Shown: positions 1,711 through 48,441 of the stretch, in pieces
How positions within the stretch are numbered: the stretch's first letter is position 1
Layout: each line of letters opens with the position of its first letter
Assembly (NCBI GenBank): GCA_041497195.1
Contig: JBGQGB010000001.1
Span: 279,376 to 343,375 of the forward strand
Reading direction: 5' to 3'
DNA: 64,000 nt
DNA from: Candidatus Doudnabacteria bacterium
GTDB lineage: Bacteria; Patescibacteriota; Doudnabacteria; UBA920; 2-01-FULL-46-14
The notes under the pieces: generated by a model
The model's database searches: none
Seen by the model: the letters and a program-made list of their open reading frames with translations, nothing else
Told to the model about the DNA's origin: nothing
Position numbers and translations under genes: made by a program

Positions 1711-2619
1711 TCATAAATCGTAGGCCTTTTTCAATTCAGCAACGGCCTGGAGGAGGTCCATCTTTGGCTGCCAACCCAGTAGCTGGCGAGCTTTTGTATT
1801 ATCCGCCAGCGTGACTGGGTATTCTCCGAGCCGCTCCTGGATATGAACAACTGGCCCACCGATGAAATGGGCAATTTCATTAATGCTATAGTTGTGGCCG
1901 GAACCGATGTTGATGACTTCTCCGCCGGAAATTTCTTTTTGCCAGGCTAAGACATTCGCTTCAACCACGTCATGGACGTGGGTAAAATCTCGTCTTTGCT
2001 CTCCGTCCCCCACTATCGTCATCGGCTGCTCTTGCTGTCGCTGCTCCAAAAAAATTCCGACTACGGCAGCGTAAGCACCTTCCGTTATCTGCCGTGGCCC
2101 ATAAACATTAAAGTAACGCAGCACGACAGTCGGCAAACCATAAAGCTGGCTGAACAGCTGACAATACATCTCACCGACCAGTTTCTGCAAAGCGTAGGGG
2201 CTGCCGGGATGATTTGATAAATGTTCTTTCAAAGGATAAGCTTTCGGATCTTGTTCGCCATAAGCTGAGGAGGAGGCCGAATAAATCACCTTCTTCACTC
2301 CGGCTTTATGCGCCGCCCACAAAACATTGAGCGTTCCGGTGATGTTGACCTTATGAGTCCTCAAGGGATCGACAATGGAAGGTTGAATCCGGGCGAGTGC
2401 CGCGCAGTGAAATACTGCCTCCACTCCGGTGAAATGGTGCGCGATTGTCTCGAAATCAGAGATATCGGCTTGGATAAACACAGCTTTGGGATTAAGATTT
2501 TCTCGTTTTCCGGTCGAGAGGTCGTCCAAAATTAAAACTTCATTGCCGTCTTGAATGAAGCGGTCAACGATGTTAGACCCGATAAACCCCGCTCCTCCTG
2601 TTACTAAGACTTTGCTCAT
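1711..2619 (-). CDS. NAD-dependent nucleotide-sugar epimerase/dehydratase (GalE-like SDR)
   Basis: 302 aa; N-terminal VLVTGGAGFIGSNIVDR Rossmann motif, YxxxK region (SSSAYG...); 4-nt overlap with upstream gene. Confidence 0.8.
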   Translation of the reverse strand: MSKVLVTGGAGFIGSNIVDRFIQDGNEVLILDDLSTGKRENLNPKAVFIQADISDFETIAHHFTGVEAVFHCAALARIQPSIVDPLRTHKVNITGTLNVLWAAHKAGVKKVIYSASSSAYGEQDPKAYPLKEHLSNHPGSPYALQKLVGEMYCQLFSQLYGLPTVVLRYFNVYGPRQITEGAYAAVVGIFLEQRQQEQPMTIVGDGEQRRDFTHVHDVVEANVLAWQKEISGGEVINIGSGHNYSINEIAHFIGGPVVHIQERLGEYPVTLADNTKARQLLGWQPKMDLLQAVAELKKAYDL

Positions 2620-3419
2620 ATATCTTTTTTTAATAATCCTTGAGAACGCAATTTTTCGTTGAGGGAAATAATCGTCTCAATGAATTTAGCCGGGCTTCCT
2701 TTTTGCTGAGCATACCAAGCAAAAGTTTTGACGTCTTTGGGCAAACACTTTCCGCCGTAACCGCGGTAACCGCCGTGAAGCACGTCAAAGTGTGAATCAA
2801 CTATGCGCGGATCATGGGTCAGGCCTTCTTTTACTTGATCATAATTTGCCCCGATTTTTTGAGCGTAGTCATAAATTGTGTTAGCGAAAATAACTTTGAA
2901 AGCATAGTAACTATTGATTGTGTACTTCACCATTTCCGCAGCCTTTGCTGGAAGAATTTTTTCATAGGGCACCCTTGGTAACATTTGGAGGACCTCATCG
3001 GCGAGTCCCTGGGTCTTACCAGTAAAACCAACCAGTTGTTTGTCAGGATGGGCAAAATCTTCAACCGCTGTCTTTTCCGTGAGAAACTCGGGGCTGAAAA
3101 TTAAATTTAAATCCGGATACATTTCTTGGTACCTGTCTGTCGTGCCCGGAACCACGGTCGATTTAATTATAACGGTATGGTTTTGCGGATCGGAAATGGT
3201 TTTGCTCAAAATCGCCATGGCATCATCCATTTCTTTGAGGTCCGGGCCGTCATGGTATGGCGTGGGGACAGCCACAAAAATAAATTTTGCGCGCATCACT
3301 TCCTCTATCGGGTCAACTGGCTTGTATTTATCATAAATTTTTACCTGACTATAGTGCGCGGCCACGGCCTTGCCCACTGCCCCACCTCCGATCACGCCGA
3401 CGTCAAATTTATTGGTCAT
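2616..3419 (-). CDS. Short-form UDP-glucose/GDP-mannose dehydrogenase-family protein (paralog 1)
   Basis: 267 aa; GVIGGGAVGKAV NAD-binding, STVVPGTT, SPEFL, catalytic GGKCLPKD motif; lacks the usual C-terminal UDP-binding domain. Confidence 0.65.
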   Translation of the reverse strand: MTNKFDVGVIGGGAVGKAVAAHYSQVKIYDKYKPVDPIEEVMRAKFIFVAVPTPYHDGPDLKEMDDAMAILSKTISDPQNHTVIIKSTVVPGTTDRYQEMYPDLNLIFSPEFLTEKTAVEDFAHPDKQLVGFTGKTQGLADEVLQMLPRVPYEKILPAKAAEMVKYTINSYYAFKVIFANTIYDYAQKIGANYDQVKEGLTHDPRIVDSHFDVLHGGYRGYGGKCLPKDVKTFAWYAQQKGSPAKFIETIISLNEKLRSQGLLKKDI

Positions 3420-4236
3420 ATTTTCCTCCGTTCAGCTGCAGATTGGCGGCGCGTCCAGACTCAAATAAAGACATATCGACACCCAGTTTGTTTCCTTCAA
3501 AAATCAGGGAATTTATATCTTTGGGGAAACATTTGCCGCCATAGCCACGGTATTTCTCCGCCACAGTACTTTGGAGGCTTGATTCGGTATGAAAAATCTC
3601 CCAGTGGGTTTTACCGACGCGTTTATCGGATTTGACCGCTTCCTTGACCAATTCATAATCAACACCCGCCGCTTCGCACATATCATAGATCTCATTGGCG
3701 AAAATCACTTGCAAAGCCAAAAAAGTATTCCCCGCGTATTTGATAAGCTCCGCGTCCTGCGATGGTACGATTTTTTGATAAGGAGCCGGGGGCAAAATGC
3801 TCATCAACTCTTCGACCAAGGGATTATTTTTGGTTTTGCTCGTGCAACCCATAATTTGCCGATCGTTTTTAATAAAATCCTCATTCGCGGTTTTATCACG
3901 CAAAAATTCCGGACTGAAAACAAAATTGGCGTGTGGATATCGGTCCTGGTAAGCTTGGGTGCTTCCGGGCAAAACGGTCGATTTTATTACAATTAGCTGG
4001 TTTTCGGCCTTGGTCAGGTGCGAAACTACATTAGCCACCGCATCATCGACCATAGACAAATCAAGTCTGTCGGTAAATGGGGTCGGCACGGTGACAAAAA
4101 TAAACCTGGCAGCACCGGCTTCTTCAATGGTGTCGAATTTTTTGAATTTATCGTAGACTTTGGCGCTGCGGAAAAAATTTTTGACTGCTCCGCCCACCAC
4201 CCCGCCGCCGATAATTCCGATTGTAATTTCTCTCAT
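3409..4236 (-). CDS. Short-form UDP-glucose/GDP-mannose dehydrogenase-family protein (paralog 2)
   Basis: 275 aa; IGIIGGGVVGGAV, STVLPGST, SPEFL, GGKCFPKD; tandem paralog of 2616-3419. Confidence 0.65.
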   Translation of the reverse strand: MREITIGIIGGGVVGGAVKNFFRSAKVYDKFKKFDTIEEAGAARFIFVTVPTPFTDRLDLSMVDDAVANVVSHLTKAENQLIVIKSTVLPGSTQAYQDRYPHANFVFSPEFLRDKTANEDFIKNDRQIMGCTSKTKNNPLVEELMSILPPAPYQKIVPSQDAELIKYAGNTFLALQVIFANEIYDMCEAAGVDYELVKEAVKSDKRVGKTHWEIFHTESSLQSTVAEKYRGYGGKCFPKDINSLIFEGNKLGVDMSLFESGRAANLQLNGGKYDQ

Positions 4237-21976: not shown

Positions 21977-23485
21977 ATGGAATACCAAACCGTTTACGAC
22001 AATTTGAAACTTCACTATAAAAGCGAGCAGTTGAAGCTGTTTGAACGGGCGTATGAATTTGCCGCCAAAGCGCATGCCGGCCAGACCCGCAAATCCGGCG
22101 AGCCGTATATCACCCACTGCCTGGCAGTGGCCGACTACCTCGGCAACCACCTTCATATGGATGTCAATACTGTGGCGGCCGGACTGTTGCACGACATCAC
22201 CGAGGATACCTCCATAACTTTGATAGAAGTGCGGCGCAACTTTGGGGACCAAATCGCGTTCATGGTCGAGGGGATCAGCAAATTGGGGCAAATCAAACTG
22301 CGCAACCAGAAAGACGAAAACTACATCGAAACCTTACGCAAAATGTTTCTGGCCATGGCCGCGGACATCCGCGTAGTGCTCATCAAACTCGCCGACCGGC
22401 GCCACAACATGCTGACTCTGCAATACCTGCCGGCGGAGAAACAGGACCGGATTGCCCGGGAAACCATGGAAGTCTACGCCCCAATCGCGGACCGCCTCGG
22501 CATGGGCGAACTGAAAGGCGAACTCGAGGACCTGTCCTTTCCCATCATTTACCCAAAAGAGTTTGCCTGGCTGACGGACCAAGTCAAAGAGCGCTATGAG
22601 GAAATGAAAGCCTACGTCCAGCGGGTCCGGGAAATCATCATCAAAGATTTGCAGGAAACCCGGGTGCAATTTTTGGATATTAGCGGGCGCATAAAACATC
22701 TCTACAGCCTTTACCAAAAATTGCTACGGCCGAAATACGACCGGGATTTGAACAAAATCTACGATTTGGTGGCCTTGCGCATCATCACCAAGACCCTGGA
22801 AGATTGCTATACCTGCCTGGGCGCCCTGCACTCGAAATACCGCCCGCTCCCGGGACGGATCAAAGACTACATCGCCTTTCCCAAACCAAATGGGTACCGC
22901 AGCATCCATACCACCGTGTTCGGTCCGGAAAAACGCATCCTGGAGGTGCAAATTCGGACCAACGAAATGCACCAGGAAGCCGAATACGGGATCGCCGCCC
23001 ACTGGGCCTATTCGGAAAAAGGCAAACCCCGCCGCGGGGTGAAGGTCCAGCACGAGCAACTCGACTGGGTCAATCAGCTGCGCGACTGGCAAAAAGAAAT
23101 GGGCACGGATTCGGAAGAATTCTTTGAATCCCTCAAAATCGACTTTTTCAAAAACCGCATCTTCATCTTCACCCCCAAAGGCGATGTCAAAGACTTGCCA
23201 GAGGGAGCCACGCCTCTGGACTTTGCCTTTCTGGTCCACACCAATCTCGGCCTCAATGCCATGGGCGCGCGCGTGAACGACAAAATAGCCAAGCTCTCGG
23301 ACGAGCTGCAAAACGGCGATTTGGTGGAAATCATTACGGGCAAAGAACCGCGCGTGACGCGCGACTGGCTGCGGTTCGTCAAAACCTCCAATGCCCGTGG
23401 CAAAATCCGCGGCTATCTCAACAAACACCAAAAAGGCTGGCTCACCGGCCTGCTGCCGAAGATCCCGTTCATCAATAAGAAATAA
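21977..23485 (+). CDS. rel: Small bifunctional RelA/SpoT-homolog (p)ppGpp synthetase/hydrolase
   Basis: 502 aa; HD hydrolase motifs (HCLAVADYL, LHD), synthetase-domain motifs (ALHSKYRP..DYIAFPKPNGYRSIHT), TGS-like IFIFTPKGDV; lacks long C-terminal regulatory region. Confidence 0.85.
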   Translation: MEYQTVYDNLKLHYKSEQLKLFERAYEFAAKAHAGQTRKSGEPYITHCLAVADYLGNHLHMDVNTVAAGLLHDITEDTSITLIEVRRNFGDQIAFMVEGISKLGQIKLRNQKDENYIETLRKMFLAMAADIRVVLIKLADRRHNMLTLQYLPAEKQDRIARETMEVYAPIADRLGMGELKGELEDLSFPIIYPKEFAWLTDQVKERYEEMKAYVQRVREIIIKDLQETRVQFLDISGRIKHLYSLYQKLLRPKYDRDLNKIYDLVALRIITKTLEDCYTCLGALHSKYRPLPGRIKDYIAFPKPNGYRSIHTTVFGPEKRILEVQIRTNEMHQEAEYGIAAHWAYSEKGKPRRGVKVQHEQLDWVNQLRDWQKEMGTDSEEFFESLKIDFFKNRIFIFTPKGDVKDLPEGATPLDFAFLVHTNLGLNAMGARVNDKIAKLSDELQNGDLVEIITGKEPRVTRDWLRFVKTSNARGKIRGYLNKHQKGWLTGLLPKIPFINKK

Positions 23486-23513
23486 AAAACCGCCCCGTGA
23501 GGGCGGTTTTTTT
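23485..23513 (+). terminator. Rho-independent terminator of rel
   Basis: aaaaaaccgccccgtgagggcggttttttt. Confidence 0.75.
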
Positions 23514-23700
23514 CTGGGCTCTTTCTTGGAGCAGGAAGTTTCAAGGAGGAGATCACTCGTTTGGAGTGAAACTTGAATTTTCCTGCCCCGAGAAAGAGGA
23601 GGAAGAGTAGCGCTTGATGCGTCACTCTTCCTCGGAACACAATTACCTTGAGCCATCCGTCAGGACAGCTCCAGCCGATTTGCATCGGCTCAGCCAGGAT

Positions 23701-23943
23701 TTAGGCGCTAATGCAACCTCGCGCTATTCTCGCTGCGCAAAACAGGCAACTGCCTCTTTTGCCACCGTTGGCCTCCACCCAGGCCCACACTTCGTCATCG
23801 GTGGCTGGGCGACCATCAATTGCCCAGCGCTGTTCTGGCCTCGGACGGCGCGCTTCAAAAACTTGATATTGCACTGGGTGCTCTCGGCGGACTCGCAGCA
23901 TCGACTCATCGGAATCCAGCACGAATTGCTGTCGTACGTCCAT
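23701..23943 (-). CDS. Hypothetical small soluble protein preceded by conserved leader copy 1
   Basis: 80 aa; ATG preceded by GAGGAGGAAAAA; followed by hairpin terminator (ggaagagt-N15-actcttcc). Confidence 0.45.
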   Translation of the reverse strand: MDVRQQFVLDSDESMLRVRREHPVQYQVFEARRPRPEQRWAIDGRPATDDEVWAWVEANGGKRGSCLFCAARIARGCISA

Positions 23944-24040
23944 TTTTTCCTCCTCAAACTTTTGTCCCTGCCTTCCCTGTACGGATAAGGACTTACAAGG
24001 ACTCGCTGCAATCCCCTAAGGGCCTTTTGAAACTTTTTTC
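23944..24040 (-). promoter_or_regulatory. Conserved ~90-nt 5' leader, copy 1 (candidate cis-regulatory RNA)
   Basis: Near-identical to 24431-24530; ends in SD GAGGAGG; predicted hairpin GUCCUU-GUAAG-UCCUU-AUCCGUAC-AGGGA-AGGC-AGGGAC. Confidence 0.55.
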
Positions 24041-24086
24041 AAAGAACCAATTTTCAGACCGCGAATGATTCACGATCTGGAAAAAG

Positions 24087-24128
24087 GTGAGGAAGGCAGT
24101 CGCGAAGTGCATGCGACTGACCTTCCTC
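24087..24128 (-). terminator. Hairpin terminator after small membrane-protein gene
   Basis: gaggaaggcagtcgc-gaagtgcat-gcgactgaccttcctc (15-bp stem, one bulge) followed by T-rich run on minus strand. Confidence 0.55.
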
Positions 24129-24136
24129 ATTGATCT

Positions 24137-24430
24137 CTACAGCCTGCTGTGTACCAGCAGGAGCAAAATCCCGATGACATGGGCGACGAGGTACCCCCCC
24201 GCCATCCTATCTACCCTTGGATATCTTGTCCCGAAGTCCGAAAACCCAAAGGATTGTGACTGAGCCCAAACTCCGATGAGCCGGAACCCCGAAACCAGGG
24301 TGATAAAAGCCCACACACCGAAAAGTACACTCCCAAAGTCTCCGGTGTGGGCGTGGCAAAACAACCAAGCCCAGGCCACAAAAACTCCCACTCCAGCAAA
24401 ATAATAAGCAACTCGACTCTTCGGATTCAT
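24137..24430 (-). CDS. Hypothetical small membrane protein (3 TM) preceded by conserved leader copy 2
   Basis: 97 aa; MNPKSRVAYYFAGVGVFVAWAWLF...; ATG preceded by GAGGAGGAAGG. Confidence 0.5.
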   Translation of the reverse strand: MNPKSRVAYYFAGVGVFVAWAWLFCHAHTGDFGSVLFGVWAFITLVSGFRLIGVWAQSQSFGFSDFGTRYPRVDRMAGGYLVAHVIGILLLLVHSRL

Positions 24431-24530
24431 CCTTCCTCCTCAAACTTTTGTCCCTGCCTTCCCTGTACGGGTAAGGACTTAACAGGACGTGCTGCAATCC
24501 CCTAAGGGCCTTTCGAAACTTTTTCTTGCG
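24431..24530 (-). promoter_or_regulatory. Conserved ~90-nt 5' leader, copy 2
   Basis: ~90% identical to copy 1 over ~90 nt including region upstream of the SD. Confidence 0.55.
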
Positions 24531-25004
24531 GAAAGCGAACTGGATACTTTCTCTTTCGTGCAGCTGTTTCTAAATCAGCTTCCATGCATGGGATTCCGAA
24601 TTTGATCCGGAACGACTATAAATTGAAAATAACCAGATGGCTTTCCGCAAACACTGTCTATTCAGTTGTCAAAGTGCGCTCCTTATCGAAACTCCTCACT
24701 TTCGTTTCGGAGAAAATTGTATAGAGGATGCAAGTCAGCTCTGGAATGCAAAGGGCTAAAACTCCTGTTTTATAAATCCCTGATCCCCGAGCGGCCCTCC
24801 TCTACACAACTCTCTCCTCCAACTTCGCCTGCCTGTGGCAGGCTTCGCTGGACTATGAAAGAAACAAAAACCTCTCCTTGAGGAGAGGCAAAAAAACACT
24901 CTTGAACTACCCCCTACAGCCTTTCTCCTCAGAAAGCCTTGGGCACCAAATTTTCGTCTGCAAAAAAACAATCATTAGCTTAACGACCGAGTATATACCA
25001 AACA

Positions 25005-25031
25005 AAAAAGGCTCATTTTTGAGCCTTTTTT
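25005..25031 (-). terminator. Bidirectional terminator after ndk
   Basis: aaaaaaggctc-attttt-gagcctttttt. Confidence 0.7.
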
Positions 25032-25049
25032 AAGTAATTGTGCTAGTTT

Positions 25050-25646
25050 CTATTTCGGAAAAACTTCATCGTCAGTGCGCTGATAGTCATGCACGGTTTC
25101 GCGGCCAAACCAGTGCTCGATCTCATGCTGGGCTTCTTCTTCTGTTTCCGACGCATGGACCAGGTTGTAGACCGCGCGTTTCTCCCGGTTCGCGACCGCG
25201 GCTGAGTCCACGCTGAAATCTCCGCGAATCGTGCCAAGCATTGCTTCCGACGGCATGGTGTGGCCAGCCAATTTCCGGACCATGGCGACTGCATGCACTC
25301 CTCTGATCACCACTACCACCACTGGGCCGGACGTCATGAATTCCAAAAGCCATTTGCGCACTTGGGGGCCGATTTTTTCCGCTTTGTCCGTGCCCAGCTC
25401 TTTGATGGCGTCATAACCGTACTTCTGGTAAGTCGACAAAGTTTTTTCGCCCAGACGCGTAATCCATGCTTTGTCCTTGGGGTAATGATCGTCCACCTGC
25501 TTGAGTGATGGTTTCATCATCTTGAGGCCCACGACTTTGAGGCCGACCTGCTCAATCCGGCGGACAATCTCGCCGGTGAGCCCGCGGCGGACGCCATCTG
25601 GCTTGATCATCAAAAAAGTTGTTTCTTCGCGCGGATGCGTGGCCAT
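25050..25646 (-). CDS. ndk: Nucleoside diphosphate kinase with ~50-aa C-terminal extension
   Basis: 198 aa; TFLMIKPDGVRRGLTGEI..., active-site NLVHASE. Confidence 0.85.
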   Translation of the reverse strand: MATHPREETTFLMIKPDGVRRGLTGEIVRRIEQVGLKVVGLKMMKPSLKQVDDHYPKDKAWITRLGEKTLSTYQKYGYDAIKELGTDKAEKIGPQVRKWLLEFMTSGPVVVVVIRGVHAVAMVRKLAGHTMPSEAMLGTIRGDFSVDSAAVANREKRAVYNLVHASETEEEAQHEIEHWFGRETVHDYQRTDDEVFPK

Positions 25647-26347: not shown

Positions 26348-27238
26348 TTAGCGGGGCCCTTGCAACCCTCCTGACCGCGGCAAAAGCTCGACCCGTTCCG
26401 GAAAAAGCGCAAATGCAACATCGCCGTCCTGGTCTGTGCGCAGAACATGGGCTGGGTGGCGCCCCAAAACGTCGAGTGTTTCTGGAGCTGGCTCACTGGC
26501 AGAATTTTTGCCCACGGAAATCACACTGTAGTCCGGGTGGACCGCGGCCACAAAATCCTCGCCACTGGCGTGACTGGAGCCGTGCTGGGCCACTTTCAAA
26601 ATCTGCGCATCCACAGGCACCTGCCATTGCAGCAATTGGGTTTCCCCGTCCTTGTCCATATTGCTGGCAAACAGCACGTGCTGGTGACCAAAAGATACGC
26701 GACCGACTACTGACACACTGTTGACGTCAGCGGCGGGATCAGCGAAATTGGCAAACAGCGGAGCATATACGTCAAACGTCGTGGAATCGTCCAAATAAAT
26801 TCTCTGCCCCAAGCGCGGGGTGATGATGGGGATATGTTTTTTTGCCAGCAGCCGACGAAATTCATAATAGACGCTGGCACTGGAGCCTACGTCAGACAGC
26901 AACACCTGTTTGACCTCATAACGATTGAGGATGTCCACCAGGCCAGTGACATAGTCTGCCGAGGCGTGGGTCAAAACCAACAGTTCGATGCTGCGGTCTA
27001 AAAGCGGCATGGCCTGACCCAATTTTTCCACCACGGTTTTGTCAGGGCCGCCATCAATCAAGATATCGCTGCCGTGGATAGTGCGCAGATAAATAGCGTC
27101 TCCCTGCCCGACATTGAAAAAATACAAGCGGGCAAACCCCAACGGCCGCATTTGCCAGACGCCAAACCAAATCGCCAGGTTGGCCAAAAGCAAAAGTACC
27201 ACCACGTACCACACTCGGCTAAACTTTGATCCGGGCAT
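26348..27238 (-). CDS. ComEC C-terminal-type metallo-beta-lactamase-fold protein (separate ORF, own TM anchor)
   Basis: 296 aa; N-terminal TM VWYVVVLLLLANLAIWFGVW; FFNVGQGDAIYLRT...ILIDGG typical ComEC MBL start; metal motif reads LTHASADY (degenerate HxHxDH). Confidence 0.6.
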   Translation of the reverse strand: MPGSKFSRVWYVVVLLLLANLAIWFGVWQMRPLGFARLYFFNVGQGDAIYLRTIHGSDILIDGGPDKTVVEKLGQAMPLLDRSIELLVLTHASADYVTGLVDILNRYEVKQVLLSDVGSSASVYYEFRRLLAKKHIPIITPRLGQRIYLDDSTTFDVYAPLFANFADPAADVNSVSVVGRVSFGHQHVLFASNMDKDGETQLLQWQVPVDAQILKVAQHGSSHASGEDFVAAVHPDYSVISVGKNSASEPAPETLDVLGRHPAHVLRTDQDGDVAFALFPERVELLPRSGGLQGPR

Positions 27239-28721
27239 ACTCGAGATAATAGTGAAAATTCTTGTAATACCGATAAAGCCAAACGCCCAGCAGTATTAGC
27301 AGATAATAGATGGGCAGCGCCCACCAATGCATTTGCAGGGATAAAGCCGCAAACGGCAGGTGCGCGAAAAATTGGATAACGCGAATTTGAAACTCGAGAA
27401 ACACCCACGGCAAACTCGCCACCAGATGTCCCAAAGGCAAATAAACTATGCCGGCCAGTCCGGCCACAAAGGCCAAAAGCATGGTATAAGGAATGGTCCA
27501 GAGGATGAGAACATTCACCACAGGTGCGACGATGGAAATCCGATCAAAATAATAAATCAAAATGGGCAGGGTGAAAATCTGAGCCGCCAACGTAGAAGAA
27601 AGGTTGGTACGAAAGCCCAGGACATCAGGGACACGGGCAAACCATTTCTCAAACATCGGCGATAAATAAATGAGCCCCAGCGTCGCCAGAAAGGACAGTT
27701 GAAAACCGATGTCATGGCTCAAAATTTTAGGATTAGCCAGGACCATTATGGCAGCCACAAAAATCAAAGCATTCAGGGACTGGTAAAGCCTACCAAGATT
27801 GAGTGCGAGCACCACCAGCATACCCATGACCGCCGCGCGCACCACTGACGCATCCGCGCCGGTGAGGATGACAAAAGCCAACACCGTGGCCAGGGACAGC
27901 CAAAAGGCGACCCGCTTGCCCCACCACGCTCGGGTTTTCAAAAGATTTCTGGTGATGACCGAGATATTGTAACCGGAGATGACGACGATATGAGAGACCC
28001 CGGCCAAAACCAGGGCGGCTTGGAAATCCTGAGGCAGTGCTCGCTTGAGCCCCAGGATCAAGCCCAAAGCGAGAGCGCTATGCGGTTCGGGCAGGCTGGC
28101 GGACAAAACCTCGACAAATTTGCGCTTGATCGAAAGCAGAAAGGCTTTGACCGGATTGCCCTGTTTTACGGCCAATTTTTCAATCTTGGGAAATCGCACC
28201 ACAGCATAAGTATCAAACCGCGCCAAATAATTTTTGTAGGAAAAATCCGGGGTCTCAAACGGCTCTTCCAGTTTACCGGTAAATTGCAATTTGTCCCCGT
28301 ATTGATACTCCGGATATTTGGAGACATTCAAAAGCACGGCTCCCGTGTAACCCTCGACTCGCATGGTCAGATTGGTCTGCTTGTCGCGCACATCCGGCTC
28401 TTTCACCACGACCCCGGTCAACTCGACCTTTTGCCCAAACAGCCGGCCGACGAAATCGGGCCGATTCACAGGCGAGCTGGTTTTGAGGCGCACTGCCCCA
28501 GCTAGCAAGGTCAAGACCAGGCACGCGATGAGTAAAACTCTTTTGTTTTGCCAGGCCAGGGTCAACAAAATAATAAAAATCATGGCTGTTGCAGCCATGA
28601 CGTAATAATTCAGATATGGCCCCGAGAACACGCCGAGGAGAAAACTGAGACAAAACAAAAGGAATATTTTCGACTTGCCCAATTGCATACTGCCCTTCCC
28701 TTCAGAACAAAAGTCTTGCAA
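27219..28721 (-). CDS. comEC: ComEC/Rec2 competence channel membrane domain
   Basis: 500 aa polytopic; DUF4131-like N-terminal region then Competence-domain-like helices; overlaps downstream MBL ORF by 20 nt in another frame. Confidence 0.6.
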   Translation of the reverse strand: MQDFCSEGKGSMQLGKSKIFLLFCLSFLLGVFSGPYLNYYVMAATAMIFIILLTLAWQNKRVLLIACLVLTLLAGAVRLKTSSPVNRPDFVGRLFGQKVELTGVVVKEPDVRDKQTNLTMRVEGYTGAVLLNVSKYPEYQYGDKLQFTGKLEEPFETPDFSYKNYLARFDTYAVVRFPKIEKLAVKQGNPVKAFLLSIKRKFVEVLSASLPEPHSALALGLILGLKRALPQDFQAALVLAGVSHIVVISGYNISVITRNLLKTRAWWGKRVAFWLSLATVLAFVILTGADASVVRAAVMGMLVVLALNLGRLYQSLNALIFVAAIMVLANPKILSHDIGFQLSFLATLGLIYLSPMFEKWFARVPDVLGFRTNLSSTLAAQIFTLPILIYYFDRISIVAPVVNVLILWTIPYTMLLAFVAGLAGIVYLPLGHLVASLPWVFLEFQIRVIQFFAHLPFAALSLQMHWWALPIYYLLILLGVWLYRYYKNFHYYLEYARIKV

Positions 28722-44184: not shown

Positions 44185-44814
44185 CTAGTTCGCTACTGAA
44201 AGTGGTTTGTAAGCCGGTGCTGAAAATTGCCCTAGCTCATTTGTCGGAAAAAGCCGAAACAAAACGCGCCCGACAATATATTTACGATCCAGCGCTCCGA
44301 AGACTCGAGAATCCGAGGAAGACAACCGGTTGTCACCCAACACAAAAAACTCATTCGGCCCGAGCGTGCGGTCAATATTGCCGTAGGTAATATTGTTGTT
44401 AGGCAGATAGCTTTCGTCCAAGGCAATCCCGTTTGGGTTGGCAGCATTGTAGACAGTGACATGTCCATTGTCGATCACTATCCGCTCGTTCGGCAAACCG
44501 ACTATTCGCTTGATGAAGTATTGGGAGGTGTCATTGGGAAATTTCAAAACAATCACCTCGCCACGTTCCGGCTGACGCAAATGATAGGTCATTTCGTCTA
44601 TGATCAAATAATTACCGTCCTGAAAATTGGGTCGCATCGAATCGCCAGTCACTACAAACGGTTGAAACAAAAACCACCGCACTGGAATGATAATAGCGAC
44701 AGCGATGATAAAAACCTTCAAAAAATCAAAAATGAACAAGCCTACCGCCCCTAGAGTACTGCTGGGTTTATTGTGCTCGGGCATTGGGGTTTGCGGCGCG
44801 GTATTTTCTGGCAT
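44185..44814 (-). CDS. lepB: Signal peptidase I
   Basis: 209 aa; VVTGDSMRPNF (Ser box), GDNRLSSSDSRVFG (Lys box region). Confidence 0.9.
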   Translation of the reverse strand: MPENTAPQTPMPEHNKPSSTLGAVGLFIFDFLKVFIIAVAIIIPVRWFLFQPFVVTGDSMRPNFQDGNYLIIDEMTYHLRQPERGEVIVLKFPNDTSQYFIKRIVGLPNERIVIDNGHVTVYNAANPNGIALDESYLPNNNITYGNIDRTLGPNEFFVLGDNRLSSSDSRVFGALDRKYIVGRVLFRLFPTNELGQFSAPAYKPLSVAN

Positions 44815-47352: not shown

Positions 47353-48441
47353 ATGAACAAAGAGCACATCTATTTTAACGCTTTCAACCAGGTCGGCCAA
47401 ATCGGTTCGGTCCGGTTTCGCAAACTCCTGAATCATTTCCCGGACATGGAAACAGCCTGGCGCGCCCCTATGGGTGAATATTTGAGAGCTGGGCTGGAGG
47501 AGCCGATAGTCCAAAAAATCCTGGAAATCAAGACGCAAATCGAGCCGGAAGCCGAATTTGAAAAATTGCTTAAAAAAGCCGTCACGCTCCTGACTTATCC
47601 GGAAGAGAGCTACCCGAAACTGCTCAAAGAAATCCCCAATCCGCCGATGATTTTGTATATCTTAGGGACGATTCAGGCCAAAGACGAGATGGCAGTCGCG
47701 GTAGTCGGGAGCCGCAAATTCAGCCAGTACGGCCAACAGGTGACGCAGGACATCGTGCGCGACCTGGTGCGCGCCAACATTACTGTTGTTTCCGGTTTAG
47801 CTCTCGGCATTGACGCACTCGCTCACCGCACTGCCGTCGAGTTTGATGGGCGGACCGTGGCAGTGCTGGCCTGCGGCATTGACTCGATCTACCCGGCCAA
47901 CAACCGCGTGATTGCCGACAAAATTTTGCAAGGCCACGGCGCCATCATCTCCGAGTTTCCTCTCGGCACCCCCCCGCTCAAACACCATTTCCCCCACCGC
48001 AACCGGATCATCTCCGGCCTGTCTCTGGGCACGGTGGTGATCGAAGCCGCGCTTGATTCCGGCGCGCTGATCACCGCCCAGCATGCCCTGGAACAAAATC
48101 GCCAGGTATTTGCTGTCCCAGGGTCAATCTACAATCCCGCTTCCGCTGGGCCGAATAACCTCCTCAAAATGGGGGCTAAACCAGTGACGGCGGCAACAGA
48201 CATTCTTGAGGATTTGAATCTGGGACATTTACAACAGGAATTGCTCACTGAAGAAATAGTCGGCGACAATGAAGACGAGCAAAAAATCCTCGCCATCCTC
48301 ACCCGCGTACCCCAACATTTTGACCAAATCACCCAACTAGTGAGCTTGCCCGCTGCCACAGTCGCCGCTAGTTTGACCATCATGGAAATGAAAGGCAAGG
48401 TCCGCAACCTCGGTGCCAATCAATATATCAAGCCTAGATAA
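47353..48441 (+). CDS. dprA: DNA processing protein DprA/Smf
   Basis: 362 aa; Rossmann-like VVSGLALGIDALAHRTA, C-terminal winged-helix-like tail. Confidence 0.85.
   Translation: MNKEHIYFNAFNQVGQIGSVRFRKLLNHFPDMETAWRAPMGEYLRAGLEEPIVQKILEIKTQIEPEAEFEKLLKKAVTLLTYPEESYPKLLKEIPNPPMILYILGTIQAKDEMAVAVVGSRKFSQYGQQVTQDIVRDLVRANITVVSGLALGIDALAHRTAVEFDGRTVAVLACGIDSIYPANNRVIADKILQGHGAIISEFPLGTPPLKHHFPHRNRIISGLSLGTVVIEAALDSGALITAQHALEQNRQVFAVPGSIYNPASAGPNNLLKMGAKPVTAATDILEDLNLGHLQQELLTEEIVGDNEDEQKILAILTRVPQHFDQITQLVSLPAATVAASLTIMEMKGKVRNLGANQYIKPR

Follow-up and report, generated by a model that had tools for sequence, protein, structure and literature searches.

A Shine-Dalgarno-linked RNA hairpin before unrelated small genes in a Doudnabacteria chromosome and in uncultivated phages

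Why should two adjacent genes that encode unrelated small proteins begin with the same untranslated leader? The question is raised by a locus of a Candidatus Doudnabacteria genome, which we analysed within a 64-kb stretch of DNA (hereafter the window). A sequence-only reading had described a ~90-nt leader duplicated in front of a Shine-Dalgarno sequence (SD), an ATG and two unrelated small genes, and had taken it for a candidate riboswitch or RNA regulator with its own regulon.

Two unrelated small genes share a 92-nt leader

The duplication was confirmed. The leader is a 92-nt direct repeat (family D1) on the minus strand, the two copies sharing 86 of 92 nt (93%) and starting 486 nt apart, and the ORFs behind them are unrelated:

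24433..24524, minus strand: leader repeat copy A, 92 nt, the 5' UTR of ORF97; direct repeat family D1, sharp edges
24435..24441, minus strand: SD GAGGAGG of ORF97 (ATG 24430-24428), read directly from the sequence
24137..24430, minus strand: ORF97, an orphan with three hydrophobic segments; atypical codon usage, self-match only
23947..24038, minus strand: leader repeat copy B, 92 nt, the 5' UTR of ORF80; direct repeat family D1
23949..23955, minus strand: SD GAGGAGG of ORF80 (ATG 23943-23941), read directly from the sequence
23701..23943, minus strand: ORF80, a soluble orphan; atypical codon usage, self-match only

Each copy terminates in GAGGAGG, with the ATG of ORF97 or ORF80 4-5 nt further. 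These are the only two copies in the window, and shuffled sequences gave none. Outside the 92 nt, similarity between the two units does not exceed that of shuffles, so the repeat edges are sharp, and a longer tandem duplication was rejected because nothing else is common to both units. The GC-elevated island in which the locus had been placed is absent; GC is 0.45-0.55 here, equal to the flanks.

As read from the sequence, ORF97 contains three hydrophobic segments and ORF80 is soluble, and the two are unrelated. The suggestion that the membrane protein is exporter-like did not hold, since ORF97 resembles no exporter. Homologues of ORF97 were sought among 5.8e9 proteins and 1.84e9 representatives, which returned ORF97 alone; the search for homologues of ORF80 likewise returned only itself.

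The leaders lie in an island of conserved non-coding modules

The locus is a 1.56-kb island between the convergent genes ndk and relA, which are spaced by 32-111 nt in four relatives (L059, L061, L064, and L065). L058 and L063 carry islands at the same ndk-relA site, with the same non-coding modules and different orphan ORFs; no array was found in the relatives L068, L069, and L070. Besides leaders and ORFs, the island of the window contains the following modules:

24651..25002, minus strand: remaining conserved non-coding block with a -10 TATACT (24990-24995), a conserved hairpin and an intrinsic terminator (24870-24889), from terminator scan and consensus fold
24526..24650, minus strand: S element, a structured non-coding block directly 5' of leader A; inverted repeat I1
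24081..24128, minus strand: T1, after ORF97, a 3' hairpin GAGGAAGG..CCUUCCUC (24089-24128) and then ACCUUUUU; direct reading
24044..24057, minus strand: junction motif CTGAAAATTGGTTC between cassettes, found identical between L063 units, twice
23597..23703, minus strand: 3' module of cassette 2, consisting of AAAUCCUGG, two small hairpins, CAAGGUAAUUGUGU and hairpin T2; comparison with L063
23518..23606, minus strand: long hairpin H at the island end beside the relA terminator; hairpin detected, 78% identical to L063

T1 is 94% identical to the hairpin after an unrelated ORF of L058, and its tail motif is common with L063. The 3' module of cassette 2 has counterparts of 84-87% identity in two L063 cassettes, and different ORFs enter it in different frames. 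Each unit had been credited with its own hairpin terminator. A hairpin does follow each ORF, T2 lying at 23599-23633 after ORF80, but an offset or weak U-tract keeps both T1 and T2 from passing a strict terminator scan. RNAalifold of the S element (window, L058, and L063; identity 81-83%) gave 44 pairs, 5 of them with compensatory changes. The block at 24651..25002 has 76% column identity to L058, and pieces of hairpin H also occur in L058, L060, and L069. A junction-like motif at window position 44620 was dismissed as chance, as it lies inside a gene. The promoter scan of 23400-25100 returned no promoter-like site on either strand.

Homology among the window, L058, and L063 breaks exactly at the module edges. 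In the CPR islands, the leader hairpin described below forms the 5' boundary of the cassettes; the orphan ORFs differ, and the 5' and 3' non-coding modules are kept. Among the relatives, this hairpin occurs only in L063, and L058 has the island without it. The six cargo ORFs of the CPR islands are mutually unrelated, half of them are soluble, and none matches Pfam, PHROG or PADLOC. A type I toxin-antitoxin system was rejected on these grounds (unrelated, half-soluble cargo, no promoter-like site in 23400-25100, and no PADLOC match). An integron, transposon or retroelement was also rejected, since no integrase, transposase or reverse transcriptase was found within +/-6 kb (hisS, comEC, MBL, PPIase, ndk, relA, fpg, groES, and groEL) and no recombinase among 30 other window ORFs. 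The cargo ORFs score poorly on codon usage and might not all be translated.

The core of the leader is a hairpin kept by compensatory changes

Folding of the whole ~100-nt leader was no better than that of shuffles, and the entire 92-nt or ~100-nt leader was therefore rejected as a single structure. A hairpin of ~45 nt alone stands out in each copy:

24446..24490, minus strand: RBS-linked hairpin W_A; MFE fold z -1.8, covariance-model match 55-71 bits, pair counts
23960..24004, minus strand: RBS-linked hairpin W_B; MFE fold z -2.9, covariance-model match 55-70 bits

In W_A, an outer stem GUCCU/GGGAC is followed by the internal loop GUUAAGU/CA, an inner stem CCUU/AAGG, a bulged A and an apical CCC-GUACA-GGG. 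The hairpin proposed from the sequence was thus recovered by independent refolding of both copies, though the internal loop, described there as symmetric, proved asymmetric (7 nt / 2 nt). The four CPR copies, from two genomes (window and L063), independently fold alike with compensatory changes. The general layout of the family, which includes the phage copies described below, is a covarying 5-6-bp outer stem leading to an asymmetric internal loop with near-invariant UAAG(U/A), then an inner CCUG/CAGG stem, which in the window reads CCUU/AAGG, and above it a bulged A, CC/GG pairs and an apical loop that varies.

Covariation in 18 aligned copies supported the structure. The core UAAG(U/A)CCUGACC...GGCAGGC is nearly invariant and 96.1% of cells are paired, compared with 78.3% in shuffles (0/500 reach the observed value), both the apparent invariance and the percent pairing being inflated because most viral copies were seeded by a core-fixing pattern and the alignments were fitted to the model. 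Double changes occur at 7 of the 12 pairs (31 cells), and the covariation score is 0.379 versus 0.091; slid controls gave 28-48%. The G.U pairs of the stems are standard pairs on the mRNA-sense strand only. The structure is kept by compensatory changes on the mRNA-sense strand.

Between the CPR genomes, the hairpin and SD have an identity of 0.83-0.87, whereas 4-fold sites have 0.34-0.47; the hairpin is far more conserved than silent sites. The conserved part of the repeat is its 3' ~55 nt, and the 5' 33 nt are window-specific. The claim that conservation reaches beyond the RBS therefore stands for the hairpin plus SD and falls for the whole 92 nt. An alternative TTG-start frame, singled out earlier as a possible conserved peptide, meets a stop after 5 codons in L063_B and a frame shift in L063_A and has the worst codon scores. 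A leader peptide or upstream ORF was rejected for these reasons.

In native-context ensemble folding, the hairpin forms with P 0.46-0.90 and UAAGU is unpaired at 0.69-0.80. SD accessibility relative to shuffled-hairpin controls shifted in both directions (fractions 0.33, 0.14, 0.90, and 0.78). As the hairpin does not alter it consistently, an SD-sequestering switch or insulator lacks computational support.

The hairpin recurs before other genes in uncultivated phages

Recurrence outside this genome had been named as a further check, and the hairpin was indeed found before other genes in L063 and on viral contigs. A covariance model (R2), built from three confident CPR copies alone, retrieved it from ~20 IMG/VR phage contigs that span 28-60% GC, carry up to 4 copies per 5 kb, and are otherwise unrelated. 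The viral copies scored 20-37 bits, and additional unseeded copies on those contigs provided cross-validation. An exact-core search of 2.9 million viral contigs gave 21 matches (13 already found and 8 new), all of which scored as the full structured motif.

An SD and a start codon follow the hairpin in 28 of 31 copies, at a median of 10 nt past the model end, and the distance to a strong SD is 0-8 nt. Copies lie both after promoters and 0-27 nt after upstream ORFs, and a strong -10 within 35 nt accompanies 6 of 26 viral copies (2.7 expected). The hairpin keeps its place relative to the SD and start codon and not relative to the transcription start. No two copies stand before the same gene, and the phage genes behind them comprise a RecE-like exonuclease, assorted PHROGs of unknown function, and ORFans. 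No shared protein that could be a candidate partner was found among the sampled phage loci, and a search for GenBank relatives of the motif-bearing contigs, for host assignment, returned none.

The CCUU/AAGG copies of the window are a divergent variant absent from the viral collection. Ten pattern matches to this variant in phages were rejected, none being scored by the model, and window-specific 18-21-mers had no match in viral collections. Window-specific 18-mers gave 30 matches in species genomes and 0, then 23, in metagenomes, all by chance; the seeds of these genome and metagenome scans derive from the divergent variant and are blind to the family consensus. For the island as a whole, BLAST returned no match indicating phage or plasmid origin, the hairpin alone being common to viral contigs. 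Among the other modules sought in phages, matches to a 17-mer of the S arm were chance and the 3' tail gave none. No further leader hairpin was found in the other 62 kb of the window or in ~100 kb of the relatives' loci.

Comparison with known systems

Searches of Rfam 15, by gathering score and by E-value, returned no match for either window leader at E<=10, for L058 and L063 at E<=0.1, or, at E<=1, for six phage loci with the motif (36 kb in all); the sequence-only reading had likewise matched the leader to no riboswitch class. The hairpin family is previously undescribed, with no match in Rfam or the searchable literature. The hairpin-ribozyme substrate (AGUCCUG), the type I-F CRISPR repeat stem (CUGCC/GGCAG), the 16S rRNA ~1090 region (UUAAGUCC), K-turns, and the 11-nt tetraloop receptor bear some likeness to it, but each likeness would cover no more than 5-7 nt or lack the defining geometry, and none is claimed.

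Translational operator hairpins are known beside the RBS, as in the T4 gene 43 and gene 32 operators and Mu com/mom. They share with our family a hairpin directly 5' of or overlapping the SD, sequence-specific loop nucleotides, and the cis action on initiation that we propose. Each of those operators belongs to a single gene, is specific to its phage and has a known, encoded protein partner, whereas the present family is multi-copy and stands before many unrelated genes, in phages without a common protein in the sampled loci.

Integron attC sites and CALIN arrays are also similar in several respects, namely co-oriented small orphan cassettes, conserved imperfect palindromes between them that carry a bulged base and end in a loop of variable sequence, and array content that varies among relatives. 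In contrast, IntI (an integrase next to the array is not required for CALIN) and R''/R' core sites are absent here, the hairpin is tied to the sense-strand SD, and the islands have only 1-3 cassettes, with a separate conserved 3' module and terminators. The basal stems (GUCCU/GGGAC, CCUUCG/CGAAGG, GCCG/CGGC, and others) show no AAC/GTT conservation.

A close parallel in layout is found in the promoter-early stem-loops (PeSL), mobile regulatory cassettes of T4-like phages that are also, by its title, a subject of PMC2839356. PeSL are described as composite terminator/promoter sequences (PMC4122927). In them, a short conserved regulatory motif with a stem-loop is repeated beside unrelated, mostly ORFan small genes in hyperplastic regions, and it marks the points at which close relatives exchange, duplicate or lose otherwise unrelated sequences. 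Here too, a repeated motif flanks unrelated ORFans and marks replacement boundaries (window, L058, and L063). Unlike PeSL, the present unit consists of hairpin and SD with no consistent promoter, and the hairpin is followed by an SD and no U-tract; a sigma70 early promoter with a terminator-like stem-loop was not seen, given the 6 of 26 viral copies with a strong -10 against 2.7 expected. The near-invariant core in unrelated phages of 28-60% GC, and the presence of the hairpin on a Patescibacteria chromosome, where a conserved 3' module of its own kind accompanies it, are further differences.

Like REP/BIME elements, the island is pieced together from short palindromes, and hairpin P2 of the S element recurs as a dispersed REP-like palindrome in the relatives. 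Unlike them, the leader hairpin is confined to the island within the 64 kb and not dispersed.

Proposed role and alternative explanations

We lean, with moderate confidence, towards reading the 92-nt repeat as a 5'-UTR module of small-gene cassettes, its core being an RBS-coupled, cis-acting RNA hairpin that bounds shuffled ORFan cassettes. The functional core would be the ~40-45-nt hairpin directly upstream of a strong SD, working as a cis-acting operator or enhancer when translation of the mRNA starts. Its reader may be a conserved host factor, possibly the ribosome itself, as suggested by phages that have no common protein and span 28-60% GC. Because conserved sequence adjoins unrelated ORFs, the hairpin could double as portable homology for cassette duplication and exchange, as PeSL do in T4-like phages; the organism encodes ComEC and DprA. 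The hairpin has the look of a portable unit for gene expression and not that of a riboswitch sensing a metabolite.

Some copies lie near promoters and others in intergenic positions, 0-27 nt after an upstream ORF, which would also suit an RNA processing or stability element. The hairpin would then be a site cut by a conserved endoribonuclease, or a protector of the 5' end, and would not act on ribosome binding directly. The RNase III sites between phage T7 genes offer a model, and such an element would cut polycistronic transcripts just 5' of each RBS or stabilise the downstream mRNA. Two stems with an internal loop and an exposed invariant loop would fit it, as would the host machinery implied by phages without a common protein, and in the window leader B follows hairpin T1, where read-through transcripts would need separating. 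It is a possible though unlikely explanation, since ~12 bp is short for canonical RNase III substrates and a processing site does not require tight SD spacing. The sharp cargo boundaries, the co-oriented small ORFan cargo that differs between close relatives, and the attC-like build (stem, internal loop, stem with an extrahelical base, and variable terminal loop) could alternatively reflect an element acting as DNA: an ssDNA or cruciform site, an attC-like recombination site of non-integron cassettes, or a hairpin promoter for a phage RNA polymerase. Cassette boundaries would then record site-specific recombination. We consider this very unlikely, because the surrounding +/-6 kb and the 30 other window ORFs encode no integrase, transposase or reverse transcriptase, the RYYYAAC/GTTRRRY core is lacking and the outer-stem sequence varies freely, the G.U pairs suit the sense strand only, the position follows the SD and start codon, and the CPR island persists without any phage polymerase.

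The riboswitch proposed by the sequence-only reading, sensing a metabolite or ion and controlling a regulon, would account for a conserved covarying 5'-UTR structure that adjoins the SD, as in riboswitches and other Rfam leaders, for its near-invariant loop nucleotides, and for the lack of a match to any known family. Such covariation shows structure, not ligand binding. The regulon does not bear scrutiny, because the genes after the hairpin are diverse and functionally incoherent, mostly orphans (six unrelated ones in CPR; RecE-like, PHROGs, and ORFans in phages). The hairpin is moreover very small and simple, several copies occur per phage contig, and no expression platform was detected, with no alternative pairing or terminator, no U-tract after the hairpin, and no consistent modulation of SD accessibility in silico; this explanation is highly improbable. 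A recent local duplication of a promoter/UTR segment, neutral and functionless in itself, would agree with the 93% identity of the window copies, the identity of the three assemblies that carry them, and the absence of window-specific 18-mers from genome, metagenome, and viral collections. It has next to no probability and is refuted for the hairpin plus SD, which is 83-87% conserved where silent sites are 34-47% identical and keeps the same structure with compensatory changes on ~20 unrelated phage contigs, so the objection of a merely local repeat, raised with the sequence-only reading, falls away in view of L063 and the phages. It may still describe the window-specific 5' 33 nt.

An extension of the translation-linked module deserves mention as speculation, to which we assign little probability. 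The hairpin might be the recognition signal of a dedicated system of Patescibacteria or related hosts, for example a ribosome-associated factor or the ribosome platform itself, that selectively licenses translation of phage and accessory 'moron-like' genes, and might at the same time delimit a non-integron cassette system whose expression-ready scaffolds (hairpin plus SD at the 5' end, structured module at the 3' end) capture orphan ORFs and swap them between phages and CPR chromosomes.

An RNA motif that covaries this strongly and has a near-invariant core nearly always has a molecular partner specific to it. The hairpin links a Patescibacteria chromosome with otherwise unrelated uncultivated phages; it could help to assign phages to hosts and reveal how expression is controlled in a phylum where experimental genetics hardly exists. 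With it, the PeSL idea of T4-like phages is carried over to a module at the level of translation and to the chromosome of a bacterium. The 5' hairpin boundary with its separate 3' module is a testable example of how expression-ready scaffolds may promote the gain, loss, and exchange of small genes, and a compact hairpin-plus-SD unit that stands before arbitrary ORFs is a candidate expression part for Patescibacteria genetic tools.

The two window copies, at 93% identity compared with 83-87% between species, may have arisen by intra-array duplication or gene conversion.

A duplicated leader precedes two unrelated small genes

The sequence-only reading had described a duplicated leader in front of two unrelated small genes, and this description holds. 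A 92-nt repeat is present in two copies, 486 nt apart and identical at 86/92 positions, each ending in GAGGAGG with an ATG 4-5 nt further. The features are as follows.

23486-25049, 1.56 kb: island bearing the repeats, between convergent ndk and relA
24433-24524, minus strand: 92-nt repeat, leader A, preceding ORF97
24137-24430, minus strand: ORF97, three hydrophobic segments
23947-24038, minus strand: 92-nt repeat, leader B, preceding ORF80
23701-23943, minus strand: ORF80, soluble

No third copy occurs in the 64-kb window, shuffles yield none, and similarity of the two units beyond the 92 nt does not exceed the shuffle level. ORF97 and ORF80 are unrelated to each other, and codon usage is atypical in both. 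Searches of both against 5.8e9 proteins returned self-matches only, and an exhaustive search of ORF97 against 1.84e9 representatives added one weak partial match. A hairpin lies 3' of each ORF; neither passes a strict terminator scan. GC is not elevated at the repeats, contrary to the GC-elevated island proposed earlier. The window copies are 93% identical to each other, above the between-species value for the leader, which would fit intra-array duplication or gene conversion. As direct repeats, they could also mediate duplication or deletion.

The repeats lie in a cassette island between ndk and relA

The named RelA relatives come from Ca. Lloydbacteria and Doudnabacteria, and the source organism belongs to the Patescibacteria (CPR). 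GCA_041492065.1 and a JGI metagenome contig are each 100% identical to the window. In four relatives with 75-82% RelA identity (L059, L061, L064, L065), the ndk-relA gap measures just 32-111 nt, indicating that the 1.56-kb stretch is an insertion. Islands at the same site were found in two further relatives, L058 (83% RelA identity) and L063 (79%). The L058 island contains a ~480-nt non-coding block at 71% identity to the window, a hairpin after its first ORF that is 94% identical to the window's, and a 111-aa ORF unrelated to the window ORFs. It lacks the 92-nt repeat, and its homology to the window stops precisely at repeat A's 5' edge. In the L063 island, the modules of the window island recur in at least three tandem units, each comprising a structured block (S), the leader hairpin with SD, a differing ORF, a 3' module that is conserved, and the junction CTGAAAATTGGTTC. 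No two of the six cargo ORFs of the CPR islands are related, and none matches Pfam, PHROGs, or PADLOC. The 3' module is entered by different ORFs in different frames, which argues that it is conserved as nucleic acid, not protein.

Across this clade, small accessory genes that are unrelated recur at the ndk-relA junction, which forms a hotspot (L070 1817-2067; L069 2250-4304; L060 6489-14488; L063 6494-6900). Among them are an 84-aa ORF preceded by a TATAAT promoter (L070), a weakly ParE-toxin-like ORF (L069), and further orphan ORFs (L060, L063).

The conserved leader had been put at ~90 nt. Beyond the window genome, only the 3' ~55 nt (hairpin and SD) recurs, in L063; the 5' 33 nt are window-specific. 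Compared with L063 or L058, the window genome shows 34-47% identity at fourfold degenerate sites, a level near saturation. Far higher identity in the non-coding modules argues that these are under selection or recently exchanged, not neutral debris of local duplication.

Identity of non-coding modules between the window and relatives
Hairpin and SD: 83-87%
S: 81-83% (two relatives)
3' module: 84-87%
T1, the hairpin after ORF97: 94% (one relative)

S (window 24526-24650, minus strand; L058 10311-10433; L063 8128-8286 and 8688-8707) adjoins the 5' side of leader A. This non-coding block of ~125-160 nt has no Rfam match; its predicted fold comprises 44 pairs, 5 of them compensatory, with inner hairpins closed by a ~20-bp stem.

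The hairpin is shared with uncultivated phages

Folded independently, the four CPR copies (two from the window, two from L063) adopt one common architecture (z -1.8, -2.9, -2.3, -0.8), and the differences between them are compensatory. A 5-6-bp outer stem is followed by a 5' internal loop with UAAGU at its end, an inner stem (CCUU/AAGG or CCUG/CAGG), a bulged A, and a variable apical stem-loop. Covariance models R1 and then R2, built from the window copies and one L063 copy, found no further copies in the window or ~100 kb of relatives' loci. Scanning IMG/VR with a degenerate core pattern gave 31 loci, a number estimated to be within chance range. About half of these score 20-37 bits with R2, which was trained on CPR copies alone and also detected extra copies on the same viral contigs, unseeded by the pattern. 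In an Infernal alignment of 18 copies, whose core was fixed by the seeds and whose alignment was fitted to the model, 96.1% of 204 pair cells are standard pairs (78.3% in shuffles, 0/500), 7/12 pairs show both-sided changes (31 cells), and the covariation score is 0.379 vs 0.091 in shuffles (0/500). Covariation extends to all five outer-stem pairs (via GC, CG, UA, AU, UG), and slid controls reach just 28-48% pairing. The core UAAG(U/A)CCUGACC...GGCAGGC is near-invariant in these copies, the seeds having had a fixed core.

The final model, R3, recovers the second L063 copy (E 0.003 over 468 kb) and finds further viral copies, with a maximum of four on the 5.2-kb phage contig L095. Every exact-core match in 2.9 million viral contigs (21/21) scores as a complete structured motif. 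No CCUU/AAGG variant of the window type turned up in viral contigs, and two CPR genomes only are known to carry the hairpin. The family has no match in Rfam or the literature searched. The earlier proposal of an undescribed conserved cis-acting RNA ahead of unrelated genes is thus borne out, and recurrence in L063 and viral contigs shows more than a local duplication. The specific model proposed with it is not borne out: the element is a compact, previously undescribed RBS-linked hairpin family common to a CPR chromosome and uncultivated phages, here within an orphan-gene cassette island, and is unlikely to be a riboswitch with an exporter regulon.

An SD (typically AAGGAGG) and start codon follow the hairpin in 28/31 copies, the start lying a median 10 nt past the model end. 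Some copies sit just 3' of clear sigma70 promoters and others 0-27 nt past an upstream ORF; the hairpin's position therefore follows the ribosome-binding site and not the start of transcription. The downstream genes are diverse and mostly small (50-371 aa), including a RecE-like recombination exonuclease, four PHROG families of unknown function, and ORFans. The motif-bearing viral contigs range from 28 to 60% GC, no GenBank relatives of them were found, and the sampled phage loci have no protein family in common. Only the hairpin is common to the CPR island and viral contigs; S, the junction motif, and the 3' module are not shared. At L095 74-171 (same sequence in phage contig L098), two RBS-linked hairpins lie in tandem ~10 nt apart, with an SD and start codon after the second copy only.

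A putative cis-acting element of translation initiation

Read on the sense strand, the hairpin is compatible with an RNA structure: on the opposite strand its G.U pairs would become A.C mismatches. Its position is coupled to that of the SD, and it is under selection. Its near-invariant loop UAAGU is predicted to be exposed, being unpaired at 0.69-0.80 in native-context ensembles in which the hairpin forms at P 0.46-0.90. SD accessibility neither rises nor falls consistently against shuffled-hairpin controls, so a simple SD-sequestering switch or insulator is unsupported. With moderate confidence, we propose that the hairpin is a putative cis-acting element of translation initiation, recognised by a conserved trans factor. 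Host machinery is the likeliest candidate for this factor because the phages otherwise have nothing in common. The main rival is a processing or stability site.

The ALTERNATIVES rejected or down-weighted were a riboswitch with a regulon, an integron attC, a leader peptide, a REP-like repeat, and neutral duplication. The riboswitch, earlier envisaged with a regulon that includes a small, perhaps exporter-like membrane protein, has against it an incoherent downstream gene set, and folding gave no consistent sign of an expression platform. Against attC stand the lack of any integrase close by or in the window ORFs that were scanned, the missing R''/R' core, and G.U pairs on the sense strand. An alternative TTG-start frame had been raised, and it is not conserved among copies, which removes the leader peptide. 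The dispersed REP-like repeat applies to hairpin P2 inside S and not to the leader hairpin, of which the window has no copy outside the island. Neutral duplication is refuted by the conservation of modules relative to fourfold sites and by hairpin covariation.

Besides the proposed action on initiation, the comparative pattern of the islands suggests a second role: the hairpin with SD on the 5' side and the 3' module on the other form conserved boundaries enclosing unrelated ORFs. Two further window genes bear on exchange.

27219-28721, minus strand: ComEC
47353-48441, plus strand: DprA

Their presence makes DNA uptake with homologous recombination a plausible route for cassette exchange, a step we infer. 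The two together fit natural competence and recombination in this member of the Patescibacteria.

Other elements in and around the island

Directly past the ndk terminator lies a segment (window ~24862-24995, minus strand; L058 10645-10800) with a conserved promoter (L058 TTGACA-17-TACACT; window -10 TATACT at 24990-24995). The ~125-nt RNA behind this promoter has a hairpin that is likewise conserved (GGCUUUCU-GAGG-AGAAAGGCU) as well as an intrinsic terminator (24870-24889). Given complementarity between the hairpin's GAGGAGA and the 5' arm of the terminator, this RNA could be an attenuator or small RNA.

A long (~85-nt) hairpin at 23518-23606 (minus strand) adjoins the relA terminator and closes the island. 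It also occurs in L058, L060, L063 (78% conserved), and L069, as pieces in the relatives without a cassette array; Rfam gives weak miRNA-like hairpin matches only.

A REP-like palindrome, GTCATYCCSG..CSGGRATCCA, is dispersed through intergenic DNA of this clade (L064 4932-5022; L065 2633-2705 and 7626-7653; L058 16078-16103; L060 6506, 12357, 13630, 13702; and P2 inside S). Two inverted P2-type copies occupy the otherwise empty ndk-relA junction of L064 and L065.

Elsewhere in the window, a glycosyltransferase cluster contains two adjacent overlapping ORFs of 267 and 275 aa (2616-3419 and 3409-4236, minus strand). Both have matches to the N-terminal and central domains of UDP-glucose/GDP-mannose dehydrogenase, and they represent a tandem duplicate or else a gene that has been split or degraded.
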